Source: Bdellovibrio sp. (GTDB taxonomy: Bacteria; Bdellovibrionota; Bdellovibrionia; Bdellovibrionales; Bdellovibrionaceae). Taken from it: a stretch of DNA of 64,000 bases. Shown here one piece after another: positions 25,087-50,632 of this stretch. The position numbers and the translations under genes are program-made. Numbering within the stretch: position 1 is the first letter of the stretch; each line of letters starts with the position of its first letter. Below the pieces are notes generated by a model that did not search any database, was not told where the DNA came from, and saw only the letters and a list, made by a program, of their open reading frames with translations. The stretch spans positions 187,356-251,355 of the forward strand of contig JAKFBS010000011.1 of the NCBI GenBank assembly GCA_036677065.1. The letters run 5' to 3'.

Positions 25087-27726
25087 ATGTTGAAAAAAAT
25101 ACTTCTGGGTCTTTTTGCTTTTATTTTTCTTTCTTTAACTGGCGCATATTTTCTTTATAGCTCGGTTAAAGCTTCACTTCCTGAAGTCATCAAACTTGAA
25201 GATTACAAACCACTTTTAGTTTCACAAGTCTTCGATCGTAACGGAAAAAAAATCGGCGAGTTCTCGCGCCAGCGTCGCGTACTTATCCCCTACAAAGATA
25301 TTCCTGAATTAGTGATCAAATCTTTTATCGCTGCCGAAGACGATACGTTTTTTGAACATAAAGGTATTAATCTTCAGGCTTTACTGCGTGCATTTATTGC
25401 CAATATGCGGGCTGGAAGAAACGTTCAGGGCGGATCTACGATTACTCAGCAAGTTGCTAAGACCTTGATTTTACAGACGAATGAAAAAACATATGCTCGT
25501 AAATTGCGTGACATGCTATTGGCCATTCAAATGGAAGAAAATCTATCTAAGGGTGATATTTTATACCTTTATTTAAACCAAATTTACTTCGGTCAAAGTG
25601 CGTATGGCATTGAAATGGCGTCGCAAACTTACTTTAGAAAACCTGCTAAACATTTAACGATTCCAGAAGCGGCGATGTTAGCAGGGCTTCCAAAAGCTCC
25701 TTCAGACTATTCGCCAGTGAAAAATCCGATTCGCGCTAAAGAACGTCAGGTTTACGTGATTCATCGTTTACATGATATTGGTTACATCACCAAAGAACAA
25801 CGAGACACGTTCGTAAAAACACCGATAAAAGTTTATTTAAAAGAAGAGTATGAAATTATCGCCCCGTTTTATTTAGAAACTCTTCGCCAGTTATTGGTGC
25901 AACAACTTGGTGAAGATGTGATTTTAAATCAAGGTGTACGCATTACCACAGGTTTAGATTTGAACAAGCAAATCGCAGCTAATGAAGCTGTGGTTAAAGG
26001 CTTAAAAGAACTTGATAAACGCCAGGGTTTTCGCGGCCCACTTAAAGTATTAGAAACCGAAGCTGAATACGCCGAGTTTTTAGATAAACAAAAAAAATCA
26101 ATTATCACCGAATCGAACCCAGAACGTACGATCTTAGAAGATGGAACATTTGCTGAAGTTGATATTATTAAAAAAGGTCGCATCATCACTAAAAAAGTTA
26201 ACGAAAAATTAGCGGCGACCAATTTACCGAGCTATTTAGACATTGGTAAAAATTATGAAGCTATCGTCACTAACGTGAATGATGCTGAAGCCTATGTTGA
26301 GGTTCAATTACCTGAAGCAAAAGGTTTAATTGAACTTGAAAGCATGACTTGGGCTCGTAAAGTTAATTTCGACGTAAAAGCTGAAGGTAATGAAATTAAA
26401 AAGCCGTCATCAGCCCTGAAAAAAGGTGATGTGATTTTAGTTAAAATTTTAGATGATAAATTCACGTGGCGCAAAACACGCGGAAAAATTCTTCCGAAAT
26501 TAGATATTTCAAAACATTTAGCTATCGAACTTGATCAAGAACCCTTAGTTGAAGGCTCGCTACTTTCAATTGATCAGCAATCACAAGATGTTCTGGCCAT
26601 GGTGGGCGGTTATAGTTTCGCGCGCAACGAGTATAACCGCGCCCTTCAAGCGGCTCGCCAAACGGGTTCTTCTTTCAAAGCTCTGGTTTACGCTGCTGCT
26701 TTAGAAAAAGGTTATAACGCCTCGACAAAAATTATTGATGCGCCACTTGTTTACAAACAGAACAGCGGCGAAGAAGGCCAGGGCGATGAAAAAATCTGGA
26801 AACCTTCAAATCACGGCAAAGAATTTAGCGGTGAGATCACCATGCGCAATGCGCTTGTTAAATCTTTAAATATTCCGAGTGTAAAAATCGTTGAAGACAT
26901 CGGCGTTGATTTTGCGACTGATTTTGCACAACGTTTGGGAATTTTTTCAAAACTAAATCCGGATTATACTTTGGTATTAGGTTCAAGCTCTGTGACTTTA
27001 TATGAAATGACAAAAGCCTTTTCACAGTTTGGTCGTTTAGGTAAACGCACTCGTCCAATGATTGTAAAAAAGGTGATCGATACTACAGGCAAAGTGATTT
27101 TAGAAAACCTGTCTTTAGATGCCCGCTTTACCAATGAGATGGCACCGATTGAAGAAAAGTTTGCGCAAAAAAGAAAAGAATTCGAAAGCCAAGACAGCAA
27201 TGCAGAAAATGCGCCGTCGTCTCCGTTTTTCTTTGAAGATCCAGAGCAATTGATTCGCCCAGAAGTCGCAGCAACGATTACGCATATGTTGCGCGGAACT
27301 GTTGAAGACGCTTACGGCACTGGCGGACGCGCAGCGGGATTAGGACGCGAAGTAGCAGGAAAAACTGGAACAACAAATGGTTACGTCGATGCTTGGTTTA
27401 TCGCCTACTCTCCCCAAATTGCCACAGGTGTTTGGGTTGGATTTGATAAAGAAGCTACAATCGGCCGCGGCGAAGTGGGTGGAAAATCAGCTCTTCCTAT
27501 CTGGCTCGATTATATGAAAGCTGCGCACACCGGATTACCCCCTATGTCATTTCCGATCCCTGATGGAGTTAAAATCGTGAAAGTCGACGCTGAAAGTGGT
27601 AAGTTGGCGAACTCGGCTAGCAGCAGAACGATCATGCAAGCGTATATCGAAGGCACTGAACCAACGGCAGCTGAAAGTCGCAGCGAAGAAACGACCGACT
27701 ACTTAAAGCGGGATATCGAAGAATAA
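25087..27726 (+). CDS. mrcA: Penicillin-binding protein 1A (class A PBP with OB insert)
   Basis: GT51 motifs (AAEDDTFFEH, GGSTITQQVAK) and transpeptidase motifs GSSFK, SLN, KTGT. Confidence 0.93.
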   Translation: MLKKILLGLFAFIFLSLTGAYFLYSSVKASLPEVIKLEDYKPLLVSQVFDRNGKKIGEFSRQRRVLIPYKDIPELVIKSFIAAEDDTFFEHKGINLQALLRAFIANMRAGRNVQGGSTITQQVAKTLILQTNEKTYARKLRDMLLAIQMEENLSKGDILYLYLNQIYFGQSAYGIEMASQTYFRKPAKHLTIPEAAMLAGLPKAPSDYSPVKNPIRAKERQVYVIHRLHDIGYITKEQRDTFVKTPIKVYLKEEYEIIAPFYLETLRQLLVQQLGEDVILNQGVRITTGLDLNKQIAANEAVVKGLKELDKRQGFRGPLKVLETEAEYAEFLDKQKKSIITESNPERTILEDGTFAEVDIIKKGRIITKKVNEKLAATNLPSYLDIGKNYEAIVTNVNDAEAYVEVQLPEAKGLIELESMTWARKVNFDVKAEGNEIKKPSSALKKGDVILVKILDDKFTWRKTRGKILPKLDISKHLAIELDQEPLVEGSLLSIDQQSQDVLAMVGGYSFARNEYNRALQAARQTGSSFKALVYAAALEKGYNASTKIIDAPLVYKQNSGEEGQGDEKIWKPSNHGKEFSGEITMRNALVKSLNIPSVKIVEDIGVDFATDFAQRLGIFSKLNPDYTLVLGSSSVTLYEMTKAFSQFGRLGKRTRPMIVKKVIDTTGKVILENLSLDARFTNEMAPIEEKFAQKRKEFESQDSNAENAPSSPFFFEDPEQLIRPEVAATITHMLRGTVEDAYGTGGRAAGLGREVAGKTGTTNGYVDAWFIAYSPQIATGVWVGFDKEATIGRGEVGGKSALPIWLDYMKAAHTGLPPMSFPIPDGVKIVKVDAESGKLANSASSRTIMQAYIEGTEPTAAESRSEETTDYLKRDIEE

Positions 27727-32369: not shown

Positions 32370-32397
32370 TCAAGTCTGTCAACAAAGTTGACGATAA
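32370..32397 (+). promoter_or_regulatory. Sigma28/FliA-like promoter candidate upstream of the sigma54 activator, overlapping palindrome GTCAAC-AAA-GTTGAC
   Basis: TCAAG-N16-ACGATAA, same spacing as the site at 41941-41968; perfect inverted repeat at 32378-32392. Confidence 0.45.
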
Positions 32398-32432
32398 ATA
32401 ATTATACAAAAAAGACAACAAAGAGGTGTCGT

Positions 32433-33986
32433 ATGATTAATTGGAACGAATTCGAACATATTCACGTAATTAAAAAGTTAAAACACGTTCTCCAAGCTTG
32501 GTGGAATGTAGATACAGTTTTTACTGATGAGCGCGGACAAATCAAAGGCTTAGATGAAAAACTAACTTTTGCTAATCCAGCTGTGAATTATTTAATTCAC
32601 AAAGAGCTAACGCAAAATAGCCTGGCTGATTTAGTGTCGGCATCTATTAATGACTTACGCCAATCAAATAACCCTTTTGTTTTCAAAAAATGGGATGCAG
32701 CAGGTTTTGATGTGTGTGTATTTCCAATCGTCATCGAAAACGATTTCGTAGGAACTGTTGTGGCGATGGGTTTTTTCAAAGAAGAAAACACAGCTCACAG
32801 AATTTCTGAAATTCGTGAACGTTTAGCAACTTACGGTTGCACGAACGAACTAATCGAAAAATCATTATCTAAATTTCAATATCTTGATGAAGCTAATCGC
32901 ACTCATTTTACTGAGTTAGTTGAATTAGTTGCGCAAGAGATCGTTACATTACATGTAGAAATCGCTAGCCGCGAATCTAAAATCAGCCAGTTAAACTCTG
33001 AATTAGGTAATCGTTTCAAATATGACAACATGATCGGTAAATCTAAACCGATGCAGTCGTTATATGCTTTGCTTGATAAAATTAAATTTGCTGATTCTAC
33101 TGTTATGATCCAAGGGGATAACGGTACTGGTAAAGAATTGATTGCAAAATCAATCCATTACAATTCTCACCGTAAAGGTAACAACTTTGTTATCCAGAAC
33201 TGCTCGGCATTCAATGATAACTTATTAGAATCAGAATTATTCGGTCACGTTAAAGGATCGTTCACAGGTGCTTTAAAAGACAAAAAAGGTCTTTTTGAAA
33301 TCGCTGATAAAGGAACTTTCTTCTTGGATGAGATCGGTGATACTTCACCACAAATGCAAGTAAAGCTTCTTCGCGTATTACAAGAAGGAACTTTTACTCC
33401 GGTAGGTTCTACTGAAATGAGAAAAGTAGATGTACGTATCGTTGCCGCTACGAACAAAAACTTACGTGAAATGGTTGAACAAGGCACATTCCGCGAAGAC
33501 TTGTATTACCGTTTAAATGTAATCAATATTCGTGTTCCGCCATTACGTGAGCGTAAAGAAGATATTCCTGTATTAGTGGATTTTTTCTTAGCTAAAGTTG
33601 CAGAACAATCTGGTAAACCTAAAAAGCAATTAATGGGCCGTGCTGTTGAAAAACTATATGACTATGCTTGGCCAGGTAACGTGCGTGAATTGCAAAATGA
33701 AATCGAAAGATTATGCGTTTTAGCAGGCGACGAAGTTAAAGTTGGGCATGAAATTTTATCTCCGAAAATCTTAGAAATTGGTGAAAAAGCCAAAGTTCAG
33801 GGCTCTCGTTTACAAGGTAAACTAAAAGATGCTTTAGAAGACCTAGAGCGCGAAATGATCAAAGAAGGTTTACGCCGCACGGGTTGGAATAAGTCTAAAT
33901 TAGCTAAAGAGCTTGGTATTTCACGTGCCGGTCTTATCATGAAAGTTGAAAAATACGGTCTTGATAAACGTAAGTTAGCTCGCTAA
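32433..33986 (+). CDS. Sigma54-dependent enhancer-binding protein with N-terminal PocR-like sensor and Fis-type HTH
   Basis: GDNGTGKE, ESELFGHVKGSFTGA, FFLDEIG, FREDLYYRLNV, WPGNVREL, C-terminal NKSKLAKELGISR; GAGG SD before ATG 32433. Confidence 0.93.
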   Translation: MINWNEFEHIHVIKKLKHVLQAWWNVDTVFTDERGQIKGLDEKLTFANPAVNYLIHKELTQNSLADLVSASINDLRQSNNPFVFKKWDAAGFDVCVFPIVIENDFVGTVVAMGFFKEENTAHRISEIRERLATYGCTNELIEKSLSKFQYLDEANRTHFTELVELVAQEIVTLHVEIASRESKISQLNSELGNRFKYDNMIGKSKPMQSLYALLDKIKFADSTVMIQGDNGTGKELIAKSIHYNSHRKGNNFVIQNCSAFNDNLLESELFGHVKGSFTGALKDKKGLFEIADKGTFFLDEIGDTSPQMQVKLLRVLQEGTFTPVGSTEMRKVDVRIVAATNKNLREMVEQGTFREDLYYRLNVINIRVPPLRERKEDIPVLVDFFLAKVAEQSGKPKKQLMGRAVEKLYDYAWPGNVRELQNEIERLCVLAGDEVKVGHEILSPKILEIGEKAKVQGSRLQGKLKDALEDLEREMIKEGLRRTGWNKSKLAKELGISRAGLIMKVEKYGLDKRKLAR

Positions 33987-35142: not shown

Positions 35143-36153
35143 ATGACCGCACAAATCGATCAGTTCTTACAAGACTATTTTAAAAACTCACACTACAAAG
35201 TTCTGCAGCTTGCAGGCGACGCTTCAGCACGTAAATACTTTCGCGTAATTTATGAACAAGACACTTATGTGTTAATGTCGTGGGAGCCTTTCGATGCCGA
35301 CAAATACCCCTTCATCAATGTATTACGTCACTTTGAATCTAGCGGCGTAAACGTACCTAAAATCAAAAAAATTGGCGCAGAGCACGGTTTACTGTTATTA
35401 GAAGACTTAGGCGATCTGACTTTAGAACGAAAATTTTGGGAATCAGCTAATCAAGAATATTCTTGGGACTACTACAAAAAATCTTTAGATGAAATTATTA
35501 AAATTCATACAACAGCTACGCTTTCTCCGAAGCCGACAATTGCAAAAGAGATCATGTTTGATACCGCAAAATTTTTGTGGGAATTAAATTACGCCCGTGA
35601 ACATTTAATCGAAGGTGTTTTAAAATTTCAGCTAAAAGACAAAGTGGCTGCTGATTTACAGAAAGCTTTCACAGACATTGCCGAACGTTTACATAATGAA
35701 CCAAAAGTAATTTGTCACCGCGATTACCATTCTCGTAATTTAATGATTAAGCTTGATGAAGTTTATGTGATTGATTTTCAGGATGCACGCTTAGGCCCGA
35801 TTCAGTATGACTTAGTCAGTTTATTAAAAGACTCTTATGTTGATATCAACGATGATTACGCAGATAAAATGTTGAATTATTATTTTGATAACACTCCCTT
35901 TATGCAAGACCGTAAGCTTTCAAAAGAACAGTTTAACGTGATTTATGAATTACAAAGCGTACAACGCTGTTTTAAAGCTTGTGGTAGCTTTGCTAGTTTT
36001 ATGAATACGCGAAATGACCGTCGCTACGCAAAATATTTAAATGGCACCTTAAAACGTGTCATGCGCTCTTTAACTCACTTTCCTGAATATAAAATTTTAC
36101 TTGATGTTTTAATTGATGCCGGAGCCTTTGATAAAAATTATGAACGACTCTAA
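35143..36153 (+). CDS. amgK: N-acetylmuramate/N-acetylglucosamine anomeric kinase (APH fold)
   Basis: LAGDASARKYFR, LLLEDLGD, CHRDYHSRNLM, IDFQDA..GP..YDLVSLL.D; directly upstream of a murU-like gene. Confidence 0.85.
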   Translation: MTAQIDQFLQDYFKNSHYKVLQLAGDASARKYFRVIYEQDTYVLMSWEPFDADKYPFINVLRHFESSGVNVPKIKKIGAEHGLLLLEDLGDLTLERKFWESANQEYSWDYYKKSLDEIIKIHTTATLSPKPTIAKEIMFDTAKFLWELNYAREHLIEGVLKFQLKDKVAADLQKAFTDIAERLHNEPKVICHRDYHSRNLMIKLDEVYVIDFQDARLGPIQYDLVSLLKDSYVDINDDYADKMLNYYFDNTPFMQDRKLSKEQFNVIYELQSVQRCFKACGSFASFMNTRNDRRYAKYLNGTLKRVMRSLTHFPEYKILLDVLIDAGAFDKNYERL

Positions 36154-36952
36154 AGTTAATGTTTTATTATTTGCAGCTGGCCTTGGCACCCGTCTTCGCC
36201 CAGCGACTTTAGAAAATCCAAAGCCGGTGATTCCTTTATTTGGTATTCCGATGGGTTATTATTTATTACCGTACATCATTGAACTGCCTGTGGATAAGTT
36301 TGTGGTTAATACCTTTCACTTGCCTGAAAAAATTCATGAATGTTACGATCGCTTACGCCATTCAATTAAATTTTCAGATGAAACTGGTTTTATCAAAGGC
36401 AGCGGTGGCGGCTTAAAGCAGGCTGAAAGTATTTTAGGAAATCAAAATCCAATTTTAGCCGGTAATGCTGATGAAGTTTTCTTTACGCCTGATTCTCAAT
36501 TTTTAAAAAAAGCTTTAGATAAACATATCGCTGAAAATGCGTTAGCAACACTCATCGTGATGAATCATCCAGAAGCCGGTAATAAGTTTGGTGGTATTTG
36601 GACTGAGTCGCACGGTAGCGAAACAGTTGTCTCGATCGGCAAAGAAGCACCAACACCAAATGCAAGGCCGTGGCATTTTATCGGCTTACAGATTTTATCA
36701 CCTGACATTTTTTCGATGATTGAATCTGACAAAGAGTTAAATATTTTTTATGATGTTCTTATTCACAAATTACCGACACATAAAGTGCAAATCTTTCCGG
36801 TTGAGATGGATTGGTATGAATTGGGTAATTTAACTGATTATCAGCATGCAAAAACAGAGATCGCGGCACAAAAAGATTCGAATCCAGTTTATAAAAAGCA
36901 TTTCACAAAATTAAATGCTCTACCACAATCAAAGCTCGGTGATTTGGCCTAA
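36140..36952 (+). CDS. murU: MurNAc-alpha-1-phosphate uridylyltransferase (nucleotidyltransferase)
   Basis: AAGLGTRLRP.T...PKP, VVNTFHL, GSGGGL, GNAD; coupled to amgK. Confidence 0.78.
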   Translation: MNDSKVNVLLFAAGLGTRLRPATLENPKPVIPLFGIPMGYYLLPYIIELPVDKFVVNTFHLPEKIHECYDRLRHSIKFSDETGFIKGSGGGLKQAESILGNQNPILAGNADEVFFTPDSQFLKKALDKHIAENALATLIVMNHPEAGNKFGGIWTESHGSETVVSIGKEAPTPNARPWHFIGLQILSPDIFSMIESDKELNIFYDVLIHKLPTHKVQIFPVEMDWYELGNLTDYQHAKTEIAAQKDSNPVYKKHFTKLNALPQSKLGDLA

Positions 36953-38026
36953 AACTACTTTTTTCTTAGCCGATGTAGCTTTCGGCAAATTTGCTGGAAT
37001 CTTCCACACACAACAAGCTGCCAGCAATGCAAAGGCAGCGCCTTCGATACTTTGGGTTGGCCAGCCGTGATCTTCTACTGTGCTAACTTTAATACTTTCA
37101 AGTTCTTCATCAATACGCTTAATTAAAAATTTATTTTTAGCACCACCGCCACAGAAAATAATTTCATGCGGTTGTGGGCGACAAAATTGAATATAAGATT
37201 TTGCAACTGATTGCACCGTGAATTCAGTTAAAGTTGCCACGCGATCTTCTAATGATAATTGTGATAAAGATTTTTCAAACTTCGAATAAAATTCTTTACC
37301 AAATTGTTCCCGGCCGCAGCTTTTCGGTGGCTTCATTGTAAAATAGGGATGATTCAGCATTTCAACTAACAGCTGAACATTTACTTTACCACGCGCTGCA
37401 AGCTTTCCTTCTTTATCATAAAGCTGTGATGAATGCGTCGAACGGCGAACTTCTTCATCAATTAGCATATTCGCTGGGCCCGTATCAAAACCTAATTTTA
37501 ATTCACCCTTGACGATCAAACTTAAATTGCTGATGCCGCCTAGGTTATGCAGGCTTATGGTTCTTTTTTTATCACCGAAAACTGTTTGATGGAAAAATGG
37601 GGCCAGCGGTGCGCCCTCTCCGCCAGCAGCAATGTCAGCCGAGCGAAAATTAGAAACGACTTTTTTTCCTGAAGTTAAAGCTAAATAACTTGGCTCACCA
37701 ATTTGCGAGGTGGCCACCTTGCCCTGGTGAAACACCGTTTGCCCATGTAAGCCAATTAAATCAACCAGCTTTAAGGCTTTAGGTAGTTGTTTGAAGCAAT
37801 CCGCATAGAAGCGGCCTAGCTCGTGATTTAACAGTGATAGTTCTGCCACATTCATTTCATTCTGGGCAGCACGCAAAAGTTTTTTCTTTAGCATGGCCGG
37901 AAAAGTAAATGATTCCATTCCCAGATATTCACATTGTAATCGTGTTTTATTAATTTTGATTTTAACGAAATCAACACCATCTAGGCTTGTGCCGCTCATG
38001 ATGCCTAAAACTTTTAAGGTCGCCAT
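36929..38026 (-). CDS. anmK: Anhydro-N-acetylmuramic acid kinase
   Basis: GIMSGTSLDGVD, HGQTVFH, FRSADIAAGGEGAPL, NLGGISN, FDTGPAN, PKSCGRE, CGGGAKN, EGAAFA. Confidence 0.95.
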   Translation of the reverse strand: MATLKVLGIMSGTSLDGVDFVKIKINKTRLQCEYLGMESFTFPAMLKKKLLRAAQNEMNVAELSLLNHELGRFYADCFKQLPKALKLVDLIGLHGQTVFHQGKVATSQIGEPSYLALTSGKKVVSNFRSADIAAGGEGAPLAPFFHQTVFGDKKRTISLHNLGGISNLSLIVKGELKLGFDTGPANMLIDEEVRRSTHSSQLYDKEGKLAARGKVNVQLLVEMLNHPYFTMKPPKSCGREQFGKEFYSKFEKSLSQLSLEDRVATLTEFTVQSVAKSYIQFCRPQPHEIIFCGGGAKNKFLIKRIDEELESIKVSTVEDHGWPTQSIEGAAFALLAACCVWKIPANLPKATSAKKKVVLGQITEL

Positions 38027-38086: not shown

Positions 38087-39556
38087 CTATTTTACTTCAT
38101 GAGCAATGAACGAGTCCTGTTCGTTTTTAAGTTTGTAGCGACGATTCATCATTAAGAAGATGTCATCACCGGCAACACCGATTAATTCACCGTTAAATTC
38201 TTTAGCTAGACCTTCTGACGATGGCGCACGATCTTGATCAAACTTCTTACCATCACCTTTAGCTGCACCTAAATCATCGGTATATTTTTTATCTGAATTT
38301 GGACCATTGTTAACATCTACAACGGTTGTTGCGCCATCTGCACCACCGAAAGATCCGCCAAGATTATCTTTGTATTCTTTTTTCGCGGCTTTTGAATCAA
38401 GACCAAGCCCCGCTAATCCACCTGAATTTTGTGATAATGAATCCATCACACCTTTAGCTGAGACTGCCGGAAGACCGGCAGCAATTAATGAGTTCACGTC
38501 TTTAAAGTCGCCATCTTTATAAATTTTTCCGTTTTTTAATTTTACACTGCCATCTGCTAAAGTCGTAAATGGATCAGCAATAGTTTTACCCGATGCAAAA
38601 CCACTTGTTTTTAAAGCATCTCTCACTGTTGGTGGTGCTGCGCCAATACCCGGTTGCTGTTTACACTCTTCTGAACCTTCAGGTAAACATTTACCAGTCA
38701 CTGGGTCATAAGAAATTGTCGTCGTAGGCTGATTTGCACCATTTGACGTTGAAGCACAATTCGAAGGTTGTGATGATAATTGATTAAGCGACTGACAAGC
38801 ATTCGCTGCCGACTGTGCATGCTCACCCGATTGTTTTTTGGCTTTTGAATTTAGTAAAAACATCGCTGCGGCTGTTGCAAAAAACATTGGAGCTGCTCCG
38901 CAACATCCGTATGGGCATGAAGAAGCACACGCTGTACCTTTAACTGTTGCGGCGATACCAAGACCCATTGTAATTGCAGCTGTTATATCAAAACTCTTTT
39001 TACCTTTGTCATTTTTTTCTTTGATTTCAGCTAAAGTTGCCGTTGCCGTTTTATTTTTTTGATCTTCGATAGCTTTTAATTCAGCTGCATTCTGAGCGGT
39101 ACCTTGCGCCGAATTAGCTTGGTTATAAACAGATAAATCTTTTTGATATTGAGCATTGGCCGCATTATAAGAACTTTGGCACGATTGAAATGCTGATGAA
39201 TGTGGATCAAGACTTCCACAAGTATATGTCGGGGCTTTTGGCGCCACTAGTTGTGTACCATCGCCAGTGCTTGAACGAGCAGCTTGCGCTTGCACACCGG
39301 CCATTTGGTTTCGAACATTCGCACGTCTATTATTTTCCGCAACACAGGCTGGATCATCAACTAACGGGCGATCGCCACCCATGTTGTCATTCCAGTAAGG
39401 TGAAGGAACTTTTTTACAAACTAATGGCTGAAGTTCAGCTGCAGAGTTTGCTTCGTTGTTCGTCTGTTGGCCAAAGTTTTCGCCAGCAAAGGCAAATTGC
39501 GATTGAAAGAAAAGGGCCGCTAAAATAATTTTTGCTAAGCTTGAATTTCGTTTCAT
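38087..39556 (-). CDS. Secreted Cys-rich protein with internal hydrophobic hairpin and Gly/Ala-rich tail
   Basis: Signal peptide (FAFA-G); ITAAITMGLGIAATV-[CASSCPYGCC]-APMFFATAAAMFLL; C-terminus IGVAGDDIFLMMNRRY. Confidence 0.75.
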   Translation of the reverse strand: MKRNSSLAKIILAALFFQSQFAFAGENFGQQTNNEANSAAELQPLVCKKVPSPYWNDNMGGDRPLVDDPACVAENNRRANVRNQMAGVQAQAARSSTGDGTQLVAPKAPTYTCGSLDPHSSAFQSCQSSYNAANAQYQKDLSVYNQANSAQGTAQNAAELKAIEDQKNKTATATLAEIKEKNDKGKKSFDITAAITMGLGIAATVKGTACASSCPYGCCGAAPMFFATAAAMFLLNSKAKKQSGEHAQSAANACQSLNQLSSQPSNCASTSNGANQPTTTISYDPVTGKCLPEGSEECKQQPGIGAAPPTVRDALKTSGFASGKTIADPFTTLADGSVKLKNGKIYKDGDFKDVNSLIAAGLPAVSAKGVMDSLSQNSGGLAGLGLDSKAAKKEYKDNLGGSFGGADGATTVVDVNNGPNSDKKYTDDLGAAKGDGKKFDQDRAPSSEGLAKEFNGELIGVAGDDIFLMMNRRYKLKNEQDSFIAHEVK

Positions 39557-39573
39557 GTATCCCCCGATACCTA

Positions 39574-41919
39574 TTATTGCTCGAAGCTAGCAGCATTTTG
39601 CTGATAGCGACTTCTAATTTTATCAAAGTTTGATTTACCAGACGCCGTAGAAATTTCTGCGCGCACTTGATCTGACGCTAACTTACGCTTAATGGCCTGG
39701 TCTTGTTCATATTTACGAATGGTTGCATTGGCAGCTTGATCTGGTTTTTTACCGCCACTCAGCATATTGCCAAGGCTTGAGAAAAATCCAAATTTTGGTT
39801 TTTCTTTTTCTTCAACTTTACCTTTTTTTGCAGCTTCAGCATTTGAACCTGTCGCCACACCCGCTGCAGCACCGCCACCAGCAGAATCAGCAACAGCACT
39901 ACCCATTCCCAATGCTTCGCGAGCCGCTTCACTTAAGTTAGCACCTGGAGGAAGCTCTTCACCCGCTGGGTCTTTACTCATAGAGTTAAGAGAACCTAAA
40001 CCATTTTGACCAGCGCTTGCAAAAGCAGAAGCACCACCGTTATTACCAATTTTACCAATGTTAACACCTGATTTAGCTAACGAACCCATGCAACCATCTG
40101 CATTTGGATTAGCAGTACATTTACAAGTAATGCTTGTCGCATTGTTTGGCATACTACAGTATTCAGCTGTGGTCATAGTTGGACCAGCTAAACCCGAAGT
40201 TGATTTTCCGCCTGCACCATCACCACCAGCAGCAAGTTGTTTTTTACATGCTTGCGCATCTTGGAAGGCCGACAAAAATCCAAGGGCTGAAAGACCCATT
40301 ATAGCAATATCTGCTTTATGTTTTATACATTGAGCAATCGCCGTCGGAACTGATTTATCTGGATTTAATTCTTGGCTGAGAAGCTTTTCCAGCTCAGAAA
40401 GATCTCTATCAACGTTTTGACCAGTCAATTTTGCCGGTTCAATTTTGCTGGCGCCACACTTTAATGCCGCAGCTACGCTTGTTTTCATAGATTCAACTTT
40501 TTTCTTAGCTCCTGCACAACTGAAATCACAACGATATTTCATTGCTGTACAAGAACCTTGAGCTAATAACATACCACCCTGAGCAACTTTACTTAAATCA
40601 GAAGTTGTACCGCAAGCGTCAGAGGCAGCAGTTATTTTTGATAATACAGTGGCCCCCACTGACATTAATTTTTGTACGTTTTGTGCTTTTTCACTTCTAA
40701 CCATTGAACACAGTTTTTCAGCTTGTGCTGAGGTGTTAGAGCACGATTCTTTTTTTGTTTTTAATTCAGGCGCATCTTTTTCTACTTGTGCAAAGTTGGT
40801 ATCAATACAAGAAATAATTTGTTGTGGCGTTCCTGCATTACACTCGCCTTCCATTTTTGTATTATCTGTCGTCGTTCCGTAATTTTTAGCTCTTGTAGCT
40901 TCATTTTTTGTACAATCTGCTACGGCATCTGGGCCAATCTGTTTAATAGCCGCATTAAGCCTAGTTCTAAAAGTTTGAAGTTTTGTCATCAGTGCCTCGT
41001 CTTCAGCTTTTGATTTTGAATGACGAGCTTCGTATTCAGGATCTGTTTCTTCAGGTTTGGCAGGTTTATCTGCTTCTTCAGCAGCAGCTCCCGCTTTAGG
41101 ATCTTTAGCTGCTAACTGTTGCTTAGCTTGATCAATTTTAGGTTGTTCACCAGCTTTTAAAGTCTCTGCATCGCCAGGTTGTCCTTCACCTGTAGTATCT
41201 AGTTTCTGTTCGGCAGGGGCTTTTGCATCACCAGCGACTGCAGCAGTATCAGCAGTTACAGCAGGTTTCGCGGGACCCCAATCGTCCTTGCTACTGCTAC
41301 TACTATTTCCGCTAGAATTCGCGGCTTTTGGATCAGGACTAGTAGTCGAAGCCGTTGCTGATTCTGAACTTTCTTTACTAGCTTTTTCTTGCGCTGCTTT
41401 TTCTTCTTCGGCTTTAGTTTTGTTTCGTTTAAAATCTCTTGAGCTAATATCGTTAAAAAGTTTTAAGCCTTGCGATGCCTGTTTTAATGCTTGGGCTGAT
41501 CCGCCGCCACCACCACCACCAGCAGCTTTTTTTGCTTCTGCTTGTCTTGCGGCTTCTGCTGTTGCTTGCTGTTGTTTTACCGCAGCTTGATCAGCTTTAA
41601 ATGCAGTGTTTTCACAAAGTGCATTTACTTGGGCATCAACCGTAGTTTTTACTGAAGCTTCACTACACTCAGATTTAACTCCGCTAATGTATGAGCCTTC
41701 CGGTTGAACCGTTCTAATTAAACACTTTGGTTCAATTTCAGAAAGAATACGAGTTTTTGTCGCATCGTCGACGGAACACTTCGGCGAAGCTCCCATATGA
41801 AGCTTTTTAAAATACGCCACTAATACTTGGTCTACCCCGCCTGCAGCTTTCGCTGTAGGTGATAACATAAGTAATACACCAAGCGCGATACTCTTTATAA
41901 GAATATGATTTTTAGTCAC
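39574..41919 (-). CDS. Large secreted Cys-rich protein with low-complexity linkers
   Basis: GTG start after GGGGGA SD; signal peptide (AKA-A); paired Cys; hydrophobic helix IAIMGLSALGFLSAF; C-terminus ISTASGKSNFDKIRSRY. Confidence 0.75.
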   Translation of the reverse strand: MTKNHILIKSIALGVLLMLSPTAKAAGGVDQVLVAYFKKLHMGASPKCSVDDATKTRILSEIEPKCLIRTVQPEGSYISGVKSECSEASVKTTVDAQVNALCENTAFKADQAAVKQQQATAEAARQAEAKKAAGGGGGGGSAQALKQASQGLKLFNDISSRDFKRNKTKAEEEKAAQEKASKESSESATASTTSPDPKAANSSGNSSSSSKDDWGPAKPAVTADTAAVAGDAKAPAEQKLDTTGEGQPGDAETLKAGEQPKIDQAKQQLAAKDPKAGAAAEEADKPAKPEETDPEYEARHSKSKAEDEALMTKLQTFRTRLNAAIKQIGPDAVADCTKNEATRAKNYGTTTDNTKMEGECNAGTPQQIISCIDTNFAQVEKDAPELKTKKESCSNTSAQAEKLCSMVRSEKAQNVQKLMSVGATVLSKITAASDACGTTSDLSKVAQGGMLLAQGSCTAMKYRCDFSCAGAKKKVESMKTSVAAALKCGASKIEPAKLTGQNVDRDLSELEKLLSQELNPDKSVPTAIAQCIKHKADIAIMGLSALGFLSAFQDAQACKKQLAAGGDGAGGKSTSGLAGPTMTTAEYCSMPNNATSITCKCTANPNADGCMGSLAKSGVNIGKIGNNGGASAFASAGQNGLGSLNSMSKDPAGEELPPGANLSEAAREALGMGSAVADSAGGGAAAGVATGSNAEAAKKGKVEEKEKPKFGFFSSLGNMLSGGKKPDQAANATIRKYEQDQAIKRKLASDQVRAEISTASGKSNFDKIRSRYQQNAASFEQ

Positions 41920-41940
41920 AGTTCCCCCTGACTGATTTTA

Positions 41941-41968
41941 ATATCGGTACAAAAGTCTAGAAACTTGA
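41941..41968 (-). promoter_or_regulatory. Sigma28/FliA-like promoter upstream of the 781-aa secreted protein
   Basis: Minus strand TCAAG-N16-CCGATAT, about 20 nt before the start codon. Confidence 0.6.
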
Positions 41969-42046
41969 ATTTGTTGTGATCAGTTTTCAAACCTTAATCG
42001 TGGCAGAGTTGAGCGTCTTATTTTGAGAAAAATAAAAAAATAACTT

Positions 42047-44548
42047 TTAGAATTGCAGAAAATCTTCAGGCACCGGATTTTTAATCTGGCCGGTTGTGCC
42101 TTCGCCGCCTAGATTATTAAAGATTTTACCAGGGCGTAAAAGTTCGCTTGAAATCAGCTTTACTGAATAACCGGTACGACCACCGGTCACACAGTTTCCA
42201 GGCACCGGAGGAAGTGCTCCATCAATCTCGTAGGGGGCTTGAAAATTGTCTGTCCAGGGATTTAATGCCGTATCACCATCGCATGTGCCAAATAGCATAC
42301 TGTACTTTCCACCACCTGCATCAGGCGCTGGAAATGCGTCGTAACCCACACTCGATAAGTTTAAAAATGTCCAACCAGTTAATAACGAAGATGGTTTGGT
42401 TGCCAATACATCAAGTCCAAATTTTACGGCACTGTCTCCGCTGCCGAACAGACTAACAATATCGTTTGCGGCATTTTTGAAAAGATCATGGGTCACTTGC
42501 ATTTGATGTCGCACGCTAAAAATTGCCGGAATTCCCGCATAGTTCGAAGCGCCGCGATGACCATAGTCGAGTGGAAAAACCGGTACTTTTGAAATCCCCG
42601 CATTCGAAGCCATAGTTTGAATCACTGGAGGAGTTAACTTCGGAAAATAATTGGTAAAAAAATCAGGTTCAATCGAATAGTAAGTAGCATCAAATTGATT
42701 AGGTGACACGACAATCAGTTCAATATCGCGCATATAACTATTTTTTGGAGGACCATTTGGAGGGCTATCTCCAAGACTGCCGGGAACGTGTCTATCAACA
42801 GCTAATGGATCATAAGTTGGATCAGTGACATCACTAGCTAGGTGATACCAATGTTTATACATTGGCCATTGTTTGGATTTCTGAAATTCACCTTCTTTTG
42901 GTTCTCTAATTTTATTGCTCGAAGAAGGCGAATCTTGGCGTCCATATTTATTAGCTAGCAACGTATGATAAAGCCCGACGATTTTAGTATTTGCTAAACC
43001 GCCTTTATTTGCTGGGTCACGGTTTGGAGCATCGTTTGAATACGTATCGCCAACATGAGTTGAATAATTGAAAATAAATTCGCGGGCATCTTTTAAAGTA
43101 GGAGTTGCTGTAATACCTGATAAATTTCGGCGTGGCAAATTGAAATCCGTGCGATTTTCCCAGTCAGCACGACCTTTGTTATCATCAGTTCCAGAATCCC
43201 AGGTTTTAAAATACCAAGGACCGATGCTTCCCCCGAAAGGTTTTGCAAACGAAACTGCACTCAGCTTAATTTTTGCCAATGGTAAAAACGGAATCTTCGG
43301 TTCGCTGGTTGCTTTAACTCCGTAATAAACCTGGATCCACGGATTTTTTTCATAACCTAGAATATTTGATGCGTCCGAGTTTTGATTGAAAAGATTTTGA
43401 ATTGCAGCTACGCCAGCAGGATCCATAATACCGTTCAATTGACTTAAAATTCTTGCGTCAATATCGCCAGCAGCACCTTGATACAGTGATTTTAATTCAA
43501 TATTAAAATTTGAACTTACAAATTCGCAGTCGATCAGAAAAAAAAGTAACCGTTGAAAATTAATTTCTTTCATCATTGCTTCGGCAAAGCTACTGCCGCC
43601 ACCTAAACTTTTAACACCGTTCAATGCAGAGATTGAATTTCCTGTCATTGAAGTTAAATTAGCTTCTGTAAGATTATTTTTTAAAGTATTTTCTACACCA
43701 GTTAAAATACTTTTACCTTCGACATCTAACATTTTATTTTCAGGCTGCCCAAGATTTTTAGTTAACATGTAGATGAAGTTACGACGATTTTGCGTATCTT
43801 TGATATAATTACCGTAATACAAAGCCAACATTTGTGTCGTAATCGGACCTAATGAATTGCAAGTTTTCTTAATAATACTATTAGCTTTACCGATGGCTGC
43901 ATTCACCGACGCACCCATCGAGTTTCCGTAAATTGAACTAGTACCTACACCTGGAATTTCACTGATCGAAAATGCTTTCATTTGTTCGATAGCATTACAT
44001 TCAACTTTACAAAAAGTCTCGCGGTCGCCCTCTGCTGAAATCCAATCACCAAAACCGATATGGCCCAAACACATAAAAGGTACGTCGGTGATAGTTAAGC
44101 CATTAGAGTTAGGACCAGAGCCGCTGCAGGCAAAGCCTCGCGAAGCCGCATTGTACCGTGGGACAAAACTAGGCGACGGCCATTTCACTGGAAATTGAAT
44201 TTCTATCGGAGATAACCCCAATGGGGCGCGCCCATTATGTTCTAACCCAAAAGTTCCAAGCACACGATAACGCCAAGTCATTAACTTCCATGCCTGGCGA
44301 ATCTGAAAATTCACATGCGCCATCACATTCATGATTTCTGCTTGTTTCATCGCCCCGTAATAGGCAGCCAAGTCTGTCGATTGCTGTAAATTAATTTTAT
44401 GATGAACAACTAAACCCACGTTCACCAGCATCGCAAAAAACACAAAGACGACCTGAAAAATCAACGCCACAAAAATGCCAACTTGGCCTTTTTCATTTCG
44501 CATGGTTAATACGAATCGTTTTTTATGTGTTTTCTGCCCTTGATTCAT
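42047..44548 (-). CDS. Tad-domain (TadG-like) minor pilin / pilus tip protein with a large C-terminal region
   Basis: RNEKG|QVGIFVALIFQVVFVFFAMLVNVG...INLQQSTDLAAYYGA matches the Flp/Tad pseudopilin N-terminus; true start may be ATG 44503. Confidence 0.78.
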   Translation of the reverse strand: MNQGQKTHKKRFVLTMRNEKGQVGIFVALIFQVVFVFFAMLVNVGLVVHHKINLQQSTDLAAYYGAMKQAEIMNVMAHVNFQIRQAWKLMTWRYRVLGTFGLEHNGRAPLGLSPIEIQFPVKWPSPSFVPRYNAASRGFACSGSGPNSNGLTITDVPFMCLGHIGFGDWISAEGDRETFCKVECNAIEQMKAFSISEIPGVGTSSIYGNSMGASVNAAIGKANSIIKKTCNSLGPITTQMLALYYGNYIKDTQNRRNFIYMLTKNLGQPENKMLDVEGKSILTGVENTLKNNLTEANLTSMTGNSISALNGVKSLGGGSSFAEAMMKEINFQRLLFFLIDCEFVSSNFNIELKSLYQGAAGDIDARILSQLNGIMDPAGVAAIQNLFNQNSDASNILGYEKNPWIQVYYGVKATSEPKIPFLPLAKIKLSAVSFAKPFGGSIGPWYFKTWDSGTDDNKGRADWENRTDFNLPRRNLSGITATPTLKDAREFIFNYSTHVGDTYSNDAPNRDPANKGGLANTKIVGLYHTLLANKYGRQDSPSSSNKIREPKEGEFQKSKQWPMYKHWYHLASDVTDPTYDPLAVDRHVPGSLGDSPPNGPPKNSYMRDIELIVVSPNQFDATYYSIEPDFFTNYFPKLTPPVIQTMASNAGISKVPVFPLDYGHRGASNYAGIPAIFSVRHQMQVTHDLFKNAANDIVSLFGSGDSAVKFGLDVLATKPSSLLTGWTFLNLSSVGYDAFPAPDAGGGKYSMLFGTCDGDTALNPWTDNFQAPYEIDGALPPVPGNCVTGGRTGYSVKLISSELLRPGKIFNNLGGEGTTGQIKNPVPEDFLQF

Positions 44549-45471: not shown

Positions 45472-46605
45472 ATGAAATTAAATGAACTTATCGGCCAACA
45501 CATGTTGATTGGCGTTTCTGGATTAACTCTGACTGACTCTGAAAAAAGATTTATTGTTGAAAATAATATTTCAGGTGTTGTGTTATTCGCCCGCAATCTT
45601 TCTACGCCTGAACAAATCCGCGATCTTTGCGCTGAGATTCAATCACTACGTCACAAAATGGCTTCAAAAGCTCCGTTGTTTATCGGTATAGATATGGAAG
45701 GCGGACGTGTTCACCGTTTAAAACCTCCATTCACACAATGGCCTCCACTAAAATTAATTGGTGATTTAGATGCCCCGACCGTGGCTTTTCATTTCGCTCA
45801 CCGCATGGGTTTAGAAATGATGGCTGTAGGTATTAACTTAGATTTCGCTCCTTGCGTGGATGTATTCACGAATCCATTAAACACAGTCATTGGTGATCGC
45901 GCAGTTAGTACTGATCCTCACCAGGTTGAAAAAATGGCTTCTGCATTAGTGCGTGGTTATATCAAATCAGGCATTTTATCTTGCGCGAAACACTTTCCAG
46001 GTCACGGTCACACAGTGATCGATTCTCACGAAGAATTACCAGTTGAAGAAGCTGATTTAAAACGCCTGCATGAAGTTGAATTAGTTCCGTTTAAAAAAGC
46101 CTTACGCAGCCGTGTTGATATGGTGATGACTGGGCACATTTTATTTAAATCAGTCGATAAAGACTGGCCTGTCACTTTATCTGAATTCTTTCTTAAAAAA
46201 ATGCTGCGTGATGAATTAAAATACAAAGGTTTAGTGATCACAGACGATTTAGACATGAAAGCCATGGCTAAACATTACGATAAAGGTTTTATTCCAGTTC
46301 GCTCATTACAGGCAGGAGCTGATTTATTACTTTACTGTAATGAGCCAGAGTCTCCTCCGGTGGCGATTGAAACCATCATGAATGCCGTAGCCCAAGGTCA
46401 ACATTCTAAAGCTGAACTTGAGTACACGTTGAAACGCATTTTAGATGTGAAAAAAATCAAAATGTTAAACCCAGATCCAAAACCCATTGCTGAAGCGATG
46501 GAAGTCGTGGGTCACCCAGATCATCAATATCTGGCTGATTGTTTACGCAAACAAGTCATGCCCGAAGGTATGCTTGATGCTGGTAACGAGACCGAATTAG
46601 CTTAG
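45472..46605 (+). CDS. nagZ: Beta-N-acetylhexosaminidase (GH3)
   Basis: GVVLFARN, IDMEGGRV, KHFPGHG....DSH, MTGH, ITDDLDM. Confidence 0.92.
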   Translation: MKLNELIGQHMLIGVSGLTLTDSEKRFIVENNISGVVLFARNLSTPEQIRDLCAEIQSLRHKMASKAPLFIGIDMEGGRVHRLKPPFTQWPPLKLIGDLDAPTVAFHFAHRMGLEMMAVGINLDFAPCVDVFTNPLNTVIGDRAVSTDPHQVEKMASALVRGYIKSGILSCAKHFPGHGHTVIDSHEELPVEEADLKRLHEVELVPFKKALRSRVDMVMTGHILFKSVDKDWPVTLSEFFLKKMLRDELKYKGLVITDDLDMKAMAKHYDKGFIPVRSLQAGADLLLYCNEPESPPVAIETIMNAVAQGQHSKAELEYTLKRILDVKKIKMLNPDPKPIAEAMEVVGHPDHQYLADCLRKQVMPEGMLDAGNETELA

Positions 46606-48232: not shown

Positions 48233-49048
48233 TCAAAACGGAACTGCTAAGTCAATTGAGTGATGAACTTCTTTTTCAAATGCAGACTCTTTTACGTAAG
48301 CATAATGAAGCCCAAATTGCGGGCCCCCAAAGCCTAAACCTGCCGTAAAATAGTTCTGAGAGATAATATTGTTATTTTGGTAGCCCAAACGCAGCTGAGT
48401 CCACTCATTTAGTATAATTTCTAGGCCGCCCTTAACTATCATTTTTTGCTCAGAAACCGTATTTTTACCGGCCTCGATTTCTCCACGCAGATTCACTAAA
48501 TCCTCGTATTTGCTCTCAAAACCCAAAGCTTGAGTCGGACGATCATCCATTGTGTTCGGTAAATCAGTGTCATTTAGCGGTTGGTTTTTAATCACGGCCC
48601 CTACTGAAAACCAAGTGTTTGGGCGAAAGATCACCCCTATATCGGCTAAATTTTGTCTGTATTTATCGTCGGTTCCAGGCAATTGAGTTTCTTGAAAAGC
48701 CAGGTTTGCGCCAATAGATAATTTTGCGCTGAATGGATAGGCCAAACCAAAATAAAAAGCTTTTGTTCTTAAACCTTCAAGATCAGTTTGAGTGTAACCT
48801 AATAAGGCCGGAAACAAGGCCTCGGCGCCGTTATCTGCCAACGAAGCGCGAAATGCTTTTTTTGCAAAACTTAAATCCATTGCGCGATTTTCAAAGAGGG
48901 CAAACGTGGCCGGATTATTAAATGCCCCATCAACTAAATTAATTGCGCCAACACCAGCACCACCTAAAGAGGTTGAGACTGATCCCAAATTTTCAAATGT
49001 TTGTGACCAAGCCGAACATGACACTAATAAAATGAATAAGTATTTCAT
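48233..49048 (-). CDS. Outer-membrane beta-barrel protein (PorV/FadL-like N-terminal motif)
   Basis: Signal peptide; GSVSTSLGGAGVG...DGAFNNPA; amphipathic strands; LRLGY; terminal Phe. Confidence 0.65.
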   Translation of the reverse strand: MKYLFILLVSCSAWSQTFENLGSVSTSLGGAGVGAINLVDGAFNNPATFALFENRAMDLSFAKKAFRASLADNGAEALFPALLGYTQTDLEGLRTKAFYFGLAYPFSAKLSIGANLAFQETQLPGTDDKYRQNLADIGVIFRPNTWFSVGAVIKNQPLNDTDLPNTMDDRPTQALGFESKYEDLVNLRGEIEAGKNTVSEQKMIVKGGLEIILNEWTQLRLGYQNNNIISQNYFTAGLGFGGPQFGLHYAYVKESAFEKEVHHSIDLAVPF

Positions 49049-49081
49049 GAGAATTAGACTAAACGTGAAATTTTAAAAAAT

Positions 49082-50632
49082 CTAGAAATTCGTGCTTGAA
49101 CGCGTACACACACTTAAATAATTGGCGCAACGGCCTAGAAGGCGCTTAGCATCCGGTGTCGCCGCGTTGGTATAATTAGCACCCATAAGATTGAATGCTG
49201 TTAAATAACACTCTTTGCTTGTGTCATACTGAATTCCCGCATCGGCACCTGCGTTCGCTGAAGTAAAAATATCTGTCGTCGGCAAATAACAATTGCTTTT
49301 ACGAGGTGACACGCAAATCTGGTAATTTAGACGATTCGCAATACGATCTGCGACGGTAACACCAAGCGCCTGATCTTTAGGAATAAATAATCCAATATTC
49401 CAATCACGTGCAGAATGTTGACGGCGAATTTTTTTAACCGCCAACTGACGAGCTTCAGTCATATCTGTTGAAAGTAACGGACTACACGTGGGTTCAGTTA
49501 ATTTTTTATTGTCATAATGAGCAGGCAAAACAATCACAAAGTTTTCACAAGTCCACTGCGCACCCTGCACGGTTGTTCCGGTGGCCAGATCAAATTCTGT
49601 AACTGCAGTTCCGGATAAAACATTATTTACCCAACCGGCAACATTGCTGACTTTCGGAGTAAATTTTAAACCATATCCGCGGCCAAAAGCTTTCGATACA
49701 TCGGTCGTCTGGCGACGAATTTGACTAATCGATTCTTCTCCTGAACCTTCCGATCCAAAGCCTGCATCTAAGGCCTTACCACCGAAAACGGCAGTTAAAA
49801 TAACACGGTCATTTGCCGTCGAATTAAATTTTTTACGAACAATGTCTGAATAATATTCACCCACACCAAATTTAATTTCTGGATTGTTTGTGGTGGTATC
49901 TGTTGACGGCGGCAAAGTTTCATCGGCTGTTTGATTAATACCGAATGAACCCTGAATCAGGACTGGATCAGGAGTATCTGATAAATTATATGTACGTGGG
50001 CCTTCTGATAACACCGTACCCGAGCCCGTGTACTTAACATCTTTTGTTAACATGTGGCCAACAAATCCACCAGTTAGATCTTTCAGAAAAACAATCGCAT
50101 CACGATTGGGTTGCGGTACTAAAGTATTTAAATTATTATTCGCACCTGGAGAAATCAGATCAATATTCAAAGTTAAATCAGTTTTTTTTCTGATAGAAAA
50201 TTGCATAAAAGCAGCGGCATTAGCTGTAGAATTTTGCAACACTCTTTGCACTTGTTCTGGCGTTATTGTTGATGAGGGCGCTTGCGGTTTAATATAACGG
50301 CCAATGTGTTGTAAAAACTGAGTGCGTAATTTTAATCCGCCCTTAACAGCACCATTACCATTGTTCGTTACAAAACCTTCATTCACACCAATGATTAAAC
50401 CGGGAACCGGATTATTTGCTGATGAAGCATCGGCAACAAAATTTACACACGAATTATAAGAAATTGTATCGGCGGCAATATCATAAGCAAAAGGAGCTTG
50501 TTTTGTGGCATTGTCGATCGTTTCTGCAAACGAACTTTTATTGTTTAAAATACCTTCACCTTTTGGTGTGCATGAAAACACCAATACCGAGAATGCTAAC
50601 AATAAAATTTGAATTATAGACGCCAAGCTCAT
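49082..50632 (-). CDS. Cys-rich hypothetical lipoprotein
   Basis: Lipobox VFSC; several C-terminal Cys; TATAAT and GGAG upstream. Confidence 0.7.
   Translation of the reverse strand: MSLASIIQILLLAFSVLVFSCTPKGEGILNNKSSFAETIDNATKQAPFAYDIAADTISYNSCVNFVADASSANNPVPGLIIGVNEGFVTNNGNGAVKGGLKLRTQFLQHIGRYIKPQAPSSTITPEQVQRVLQNSTANAAAFMQFSIRKKTDLTLNIDLISPGANNNLNTLVPQPNRDAIVFLKDLTGGFVGHMLTKDVKYTGSGTVLSEGPRTYNLSDTPDPVLIQGSFGINQTADETLPPSTDTTTNNPEIKFGVGEYYSDIVRKKFNSTANDRVILTAVFGGKALDAGFGSEGSGEESISQIRRQTTDVSKAFGRGYGLKFTPKVSNVAGWVNNVLSGTAVTEFDLATGTTVQGAQWTCENFVIVLPAHYDNKKLTEPTCSPLLSTDMTEARQLAVKKIRRQHSARDWNIGLFIPKDQALGVTVADRIANRLNYQICVSPRKSNCYLPTTDIFTSANAGADAGIQYDTSKECYLTAFNLMGANYTNAATPDAKRLLGRCANYLSVCTRSSTNF

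Follow-up and report, generated by a model that had tools for sequence, protein, structure and literature searches.

A TadG-type tip pilin gene linked to two probably exported helical proteins with a common C-terminal tail in Bdellovibrio: candidate cargo of the Tad pilus

In Vibrio cholerae, the protein TcpF is encoded together with TcpB, the tip pilin of a type IVb pilus, and possesses a flexible N-terminal peptide that possibly hooks it onto the pilus tip (PMC9565799). In Myxococcus, a contact-dependent predator, the Kil system (KilLMN) includes a tip pilin of the TadG/KilN type and its authors supposed a tip-associated toxin; the available sections of that paper identify no such toxin, and Myxococcus also has a needleless type III secretion system (T3SS) (PMC12075869). 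For Bdellovibrio, how a brief touch leads to killing and which role the essential Tad pilus plays are stated as open questions (PMC12428579; bioRxiv 10.64898/2026.07.08.737194). Here, we describe three genes in a 64,000-nucleotide stretch of Bdellovibrio sp. DNA (the window), encoding a TadG-type tip pilin and two proteins designated B and C. The trio has the same order and promoter element as Bd0148-Bd0149-Bd0150 of B. bacteriovorus, but the B and C proteins of the window extend further at the N-terminus (781 compared to 486 aa for B, 489 compared to 336 aa for C). Like TcpF, B and C are encoded with a tip pilin; their conserved motif, however, is C-terminal and common to two cargo families, and its docking to a Tad pilus is predicted. 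New here are the recurrence of the TadG-B-C order, including in another class, the tail common to B and C, the family-wide hairpin of C as opposed to the changing helix of B, and the high amount of Bd0149 noted in prey that was killed but not invaded.

The trio consists of three minus-strand open reading frames (ORFs) in the same orientation, with spacers of 127 bp (TadG/B) and 17 bp (B/C). Pfam family Tad (PF13400) matches the 833-aa protein at residues 21-67, and this is the sole PF13400-type match in the 3.39-Mb, 95.8% complete genome. An earlier note on this DNA, made from the sequence alone, had described three co-oriented genes with a TadG-like pseudopilin, which is borne out by the ORFs and the PF13400 match, and the segments it quoted are present in the sequence. 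It had also assigned a Sec signal peptide to each protein. By inspection this holds for B and C, but the leader of TadG is of the (class III) prepilin type, because G21 and Q22 are invariant in 44/44 homologs. As in minor pilins, this leader, with its putative cleavage site behind a Gly, is combined with a hydrophobic pilin helix (PF13400). Position +5 is Phe, and a missing Glu5 is typical of tip pilins. TadG relatives are present in 143/151 genomes of the phylum. On another contig of the genome (C1), a SAF gene is found together with a 744-aa frame for a secretion ATPase, as expected for rcpC and tadZA, and judged from its genes this neighbourhood is likely the core tad locus; no RcpA secretin was found near them with PF13629 or PF00263. 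In one related locus (L088, 5609-7872), tadG occupies two ORFs.

Relatives of C occur in 120/201 genomes of the class and in 86/88 of its own family. A direct search for related loci returned three close loci only. We compared 68 loci around C or TadG matches, which were chosen for long contigs; some genomes are represented twice, L080 and L112 overlap, and related genomes are not independent in the resulting counts. TadG lies co-oriented upstream of C in 45 of the 68 loci, in the order TadG-B-C (39 loci), TadG-C...B (2) or TadG-C (4), and nearby on the other strand in 2 more. We also examined another 40 TadG loci, and in three of them tadG is followed downstream by B-like and C-like genes. 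All three belong to family f19 of another class, where the flanking genes are different, and the other two of the five f19 TadG loci stop at contig ends. The C-like proteins of f19 match the hairpin of C (hhalign 90.8%), and the B-like ones match B just near the tail (91.7%). With 39/68 loci and 3/5 in f19, the linkage to tadG that the earlier note had supposed stands.

The tails of B and C are homologous (hhalign 93%, E 3.5e-7) and their cores are not (0.2%), which confines the homology to a motif of about 40 residues, always at the protein end and following a low-confidence linker in both predicted models. Because each protein ends in this motif, the stretch rich in Gly, Ala and Ser (46% in B, 37% in C), which had been taken for the tail itself, is a linker. 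A flexible terminal peptide conserved across cargo, C-terminal in B and C, is also what characterizes pilus cargo of the TcpF/CofJ type. A tail profile retrieved six proteins from this genome and 1041 cluster representatives at E<=0.001; by genome it matched 23/24 in the order and 2/23 in family f22, with no match in any other sampled family. Presence of the tail on many unrelated enzymes was considered and is unsupported: among the best 150 of the 1041 representatives, 123 of the 125 with at least 230 aa belong to the C family, the profile favouring C, and the other tail-bearing proteins inspected are B-like helical proteins. Tail-bearing genes are expanded to 3-8 in many genomes. Family f22 has tandem pairs of secreted tail-bearing proteins with several hydrophobic helices and coiled coils, located away from tadG (L097, 8481-12167; L099, 4901-10643).

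Protein C, with 12 Cys and an N-terminus resembling a Sec signal peptide (101/120 of its Met-starting relatives have a strongly hydrophobic N-terminal stretch), is composed of the signal peptide, lineage-specific N-terminal helices, the hairpin, a small domain, the Gly-rich linker, which is modelled with low confidence, and the tail helix (466-479), which stands apart. Its predicted model (mean pLDDT 67, pTM 0.44) places the hairpin helices at residues 171-213 and 222-260. We surveyed hydropathy of 17-residue segments across the C family, comparing the hairpin with the flanking helices. Median values were 1.09 and 1.36 for the hairpin helices and -0.84 and -0.35 for the flanking ones, and a hydropathy of at least 1.0 was reached in 77/133 and 109/136 compared to 1/142 and 1/143. 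A moderately hydrophobic, charge-poor hairpin is a family-wide trait of C. A lone 431-aa paralog of C is encoded elsewhere in this genome (G000, contig C2, 335697-336992; L091); its relatives in L036 and L040 have tadG on one side and B on the other.

Protein B contains 20 Cys, its N-terminus likewise resembles a Sec signal peptide by inspection, and five Cys of its bundle are invariant in 37/37 sequences. The AlphaFold model of residues 301-781 (pLDDT 72, pTM 0.52) shows a low-confidence linker between core and tail. Helix IAIMGLSALGFLSAF in this bundle is hydrophobic in close orthologs and polar in paralogs and distant orthologs (hydropathy at least 1.0 in 43/77, at least 1.6 in 11/77). Of the internal hydrophobic helices claimed for both proteins, the hairpin of C is thus conserved, if marginal, and the helix of B is not kept family-wide; B resembles a soluble bundle stapled by disulfides rather than the membrane-inserting subunit it had been taken for. 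A near copy of a TadG segment lies inside the B protein of the same locus in L041 (6468-8912, score 113) and L037 (6632-8965, score 72); in the B of the window no such copy was found, the best score being 42. Near recA, the genome encodes three B-family paralogs (630, 710 and 644 aa; G000, contig C1, 663657-675176; L095) whose N-termini are variable and rich in Cys and whose bundle helices are polar, and three stand in tandem at a comparable place in L096.

The ClyA-family multi-part alpha-pore-forming toxins (AhlB, XaxAB) and the T3SS translocators (IpaB/IpaC) likewise combine two helical proteins that are encoded together, one of them bearing a hydrophobic hairpin. C nevertheless seems to lack a long multi-helix bundle of the ClyA type, and the disulfides, Sec signals, linker and tail of B and C have no counterpart in these toxins and translocators. 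In a wide structural search, the hairpin of C aligned to the pore hairpin of AhlB (Z 9.5, rmsd 3.1, 94 residues) and also to IpaB and colicin Ia, but equally well to chemoreceptors, SMC and ESCRT-III, and the likeness to AhlB and IpaB is taken as one of shape rather than of kinship. Neither B nor C matched a Pfam family or came near the cut-off of an NCBIfam family, and when 35 C and 77 B members were scanned, no Pfam family was matched by more than one member; SseC gave a weak match in 1/35 C members (E 0.015) and 0/77 B members. The ESM Atlas yielded no usable match for B or C, and PHROGs matched 0/35 C members, hence there is no support for kinship of C with phage ejection proteins. The 95.8% complete genome has one FHIPEP gene, which argues against an injectisome, and B and C were excluded from the T3SS translocators on account of this single gene and their signal-peptide-like N-termini. 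The likeness to toxins and translocators drawn in the earlier note is not borne out as kinship by any significant match of sequence or fold; no enzyme fold was found either, in agreement with that note.

The function of the trio can be approached through B. bacteriovorus. In locus L045, the DNA upstream of the B gene is identical, letter for letter, to the published bd0149 promoter, and its B protein counts 486 aa like Q6MRD8/Bd0149, includes the peptides reported for Bd0149 and carries at codon 256 the Gly that the G256V allele replaces; B is therefore Bd0149. For TadG and C, the assignment to Bd0148 and Bd0150 comes from gene order alone. The closest named relatives of the trio are Pseudobdellovibrio/Bdellovibrio records, and orthologs of B and of C are about 20% identical, a sign of fast sequence change. 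In a pooled Tn-seq screen, bd0148, bd0149 and bd0150 were predation-essential (fitness 0.003, 0.040 and 0.003), and because the screen was pooled, neighbours do not rescue these mutants (PMC6561027). Pooled attachment was 0.48, 0.93 and 0.88 and rounding 0.49, 0.48 and 0.18; the attachment values of bd0149 and bd0150 are similar to those of the core tad genes (0.90-1.41). Prey survival amounted to 43% with the bd0149 mutant and 83% with the bd0150 mutant, and attack-phase induction values at the trio were 111 and 56 (PMC6561027). The bd0149 insertion may be polar on bd0150; in L046, the gene after C is on the opposite strand. Knock-down of a lone tadG reduced invasion and left contacted prey unharmed, its neighbours being unnamed in the available text, and tad knock-downs made brief prey contact without harm (bioRxiv 10.64898/2026.07.08.737194). 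Very likely, this lone tadG and the first gene of the trio are the same. The G256V change in bd0149, located within the hydrophobic helix of B, goes with a prey-independent biofilm phenotype (PMC11323537), and the bd0149 promoter has been put to use (10.1101/2025.05.17.654431; PMC12622784). Apart from the screen, the promoter use and this allele, the literature found on the bd0148-bd0150 tags, as far as its text was available, gives no function, no domain analysis and no tie of tadG to B and C, and the accessible part of PMC12034629 leaves the tags unmentioned. The genes are hence already known as predation-essential hypotheticals; module, shared tail and candidate role were not found in print in our searches.

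In the proteome of empty bdelloplasts, prey that was killed and un-invaded, Bd0149 is the 18th predator protein listed, with an area of 3.6e9 compared to 2.4e9 for EF-Tu, 1.5-1.9e8 for flagellins and 2.7e10 for PilA (PMC11003981). All six peptide rows of Bd0149 lie within residues 61-220, and none of 11 candidate peptides of residues 241-466 was seen, as if the bundle core persisted without linker and tail. The predation link drawn in the earlier note is supported: the orthologs are essential, tadG knock-down cuts invasion and the B ortholog appears in killed, un-invaded prey.

We tentatively, and with somewhat less than even confidence, read B and C as cargo of the Tad pilus tip that is left in the prey envelope, the hairpin of C being membrane-inserting as an anchor or pore. 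B and C would be made in the attack phase, exported by Sec and oxidised in the periplasm; the tail would hook them onto the tip of the Tad pilus, after the TcpF-TcpB model, and upon contact they would be deposited in the prey envelope, where the hairpin of C may insert into the prey membrane. We infer the export route, the B-C partnership and the membrane insertion, and the docking by analogy. Of the two, C is likely the conserved protein that acts on the membrane, and B a soluble and variable partner serving as scaffold, chaperone or prey-binding arm. A bolder version, which we regard as doubtful, would make the tail a C-terminal secretion signal of Tad pili and B and C a pilus-delivered, two-part membrane-breaching first-strike complex of a new family, with expandable B-type partners tuning prey range.

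Several observations weigh against a pilus-delivered, membrane-inserting cargo. The hairpin of C is marginal, reaching a hydropathy of at least 1.6 in just 15/133 and 46/136, and the polar counterparts of the bundle helix of B add to this. No significant toxin or translocator match was obtained for B or C by sequence or fold: Foldseek gave none at E<=0.001 (the top rows for C were AhlB and ClyA, with E 1.6 or worse and TM 0.13-0.22), and a PDB sequence search with B and C profiles gave none below E 0.02. The tail profile matches 25/151 phylum genomes compared to 143/151 for TadG, 35 of the 40 further TadG loci have no B-like or C-like neighbours, and among the 68 loci the B/C pair occurs without TadG in the stretch in 13 and C alone in 8. 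B-C is probably an attack-phase unit of its own, since a FliA-type pattern precedes 33/55 B genes against a background of 7% (9/72 for C genes; the pattern was drawn post hoc from B sequences). In the available proteome data of the empty bdelloplasts, Bd0148 and Bd0150 were not found, and the proteome came from a single aliquot, for which carry-over from broken predators was conceded and in which surface fibres such as PilA ranked on top, so that the presence of Bd0149 in prey is a hint (PMC11003981). Finally, Bd0150::tn is placed in class 1 of Table 2, defective in attachment, killing and rounding when assayed alone, and stands outside the set of complemented mutants (PMC6561027).

This attachment defect is one argument for B and C being pilus-tip adhesins or anchors, displayed by their tails and giving an irreversible prey grip without a pore, with the hairpin packing on B or TadG, which we consider a serious possibility, if not a likely one. 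Such adhesins would fit the highly variable N-terminal domains of B and its paralogs and the 3-8 tail-bearing genes of many genomes. Ala/Gly-rich helices suit tight helix-helix packing, and the hydrophobic helices of B and C are rich in Ala, Gly and Met and marginal. Bd0149 was moreover found in prey alongside PilA and other surface fibres (PMC11003981). Yet B and C have no known adhesin fold, pooled attachment scores are near 1 (PMC6561027), and the hairpin of C, unlike the flanking helices, stays charge-poor and hydrophobic.

It is unlikely that B and C serve the predator's own Tad machine as periplasmic or envelope accessories, with a role in assembly, gating or contact signalling, and never act in prey. 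The phenotypes like those of core tad genes (PMC6561027) are consistent with it, the biofilm phenotype of G256V points to a role in the predator itself (PMC11323537), and the marginal helices could reside in its own membrane. However, in un-invaded prey Bd0149 exceeds EF-Tu, and the available list has no Bd010x/Bd011x-tagged rows, although genes listed by name would be missed (PMC11003981); about 20% ortholog identity and paralog expansion would be unusual for an assembly factor. That B and C are predation effectors which leave the cell by other means (type II secretion, a type IVa pilus or vesicles), with the tail as an oligomerisation or lipid-binding helix and tadG adjacency reflecting no more than shared timing, is very improbable: their own FliA-type promoter, the pair apart from tadG in many genomes and the several secretion ATPases and secretins in the genome would allow it, but f19 keeps the gene order among different flanking genes and a TadG segment was copied into B in two lineages.

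The features of the locus are listed in Table 1.

Table 1. Features of the TadG-B-C locus, in positions of the window
Feature	Position	Strand	Remarks
TadG-type Tad pilus tip pilin	42047..44548	-	833 aa; by gene order the Bd0148 ortholog; PF13400 E 8.8e-7
Prepilin leader (residues 1-21, putative cut between G and Q) and pilin helix of TadG	44348..44548	-	+5 is Phe instead of Glu
FliA (sigma-28)-type promoter-like element before B gene	41943..41967	-	resembles published P_bd0149
Protein B, Bd0149 ortholog	39574..41919	-	781 aa, GTG start; variable N-terminal region behind the signal peptide, then Cys-stapled helical bundle and small Cys knot; conserved tail after a Gly-rich linker
Helical bundle of B (~residues 385-565), conserved and stapled by disulfides, including helix IAIMGLSALGFLSAF	40225..40767	-	5 invariant Cys; AlphaFold model; hydrophobicity survey
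Small Cys knot of B (C-x10-CxC-x2-P-x4-GC)	40090..40158	-	
C-terminal tail motif of B	39577..39693	-	hhalign homology to tail of C
Protein C, Bd0150 ortholog by gene order	38087..39556	-	489 aa; signal peptide, then helical hairpin, then a small alpha/beta domain; conserved tail after a Gly-rich linker
Helical hairpin of C (residues 186-240), moderately hydrophobic, poor in charge and with a Cys loop	38837..39001	-	hydropathy survey
C-terminal tail motif of C (G-L-x-K-x-F-N-G-E-x-I-G-V-A-x-D-x-I-F-x-M-M-x-R-R-Y)	38105..38221	-	G449, G460, M469, R473, Y474 invariant in 143/143

The trio is flanked by a DUF3108 gene with nagZ on one side and by anmK, murU and amgK on the other, and this peptidoglycan-recycling cluster (window 35143-38026 and 45472-46605), which encloses the trio, is kept across the family; anmK is absent from many loci of genus g3. 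Sigma-70 and terminator scans of the locus gave scores below the level of shuffled sequences. Three soil metatranscriptomes gave shares of 0.05-0.12, with contigs of relatives covering mainly 38087-41856 and little of tadG and anmK; they cannot rank the genes and were not used. Elsewhere in the window we observed a protein with a CFI-box-CTERM domain (NCBIfam NF041770; 53577-54272), a small barrel of the outer membrane that weakly matches PorV/PorQ and a 516-aa lipoprotein-like gene without family (48233-50632), a sigma-54 activator in which a PocR sensor domain is weakly matched (32388-33986) and an 879-aa ORF (25087-27726) which by gene order may match the predation-essential Bd0161.

The locus supplies two named, essential and genetically tractable candidates and a 40-residue motif, by which the question of how a brief touch of the Tad pilus leads to killing becomes directly testable. 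Essential neighbours adjoin tadG, which calls for caution with the published CRISPRi phenotype of this gene. Should the tail prove to be a secretion signal, this would show that dedicated cargo is exported by Tad pili.

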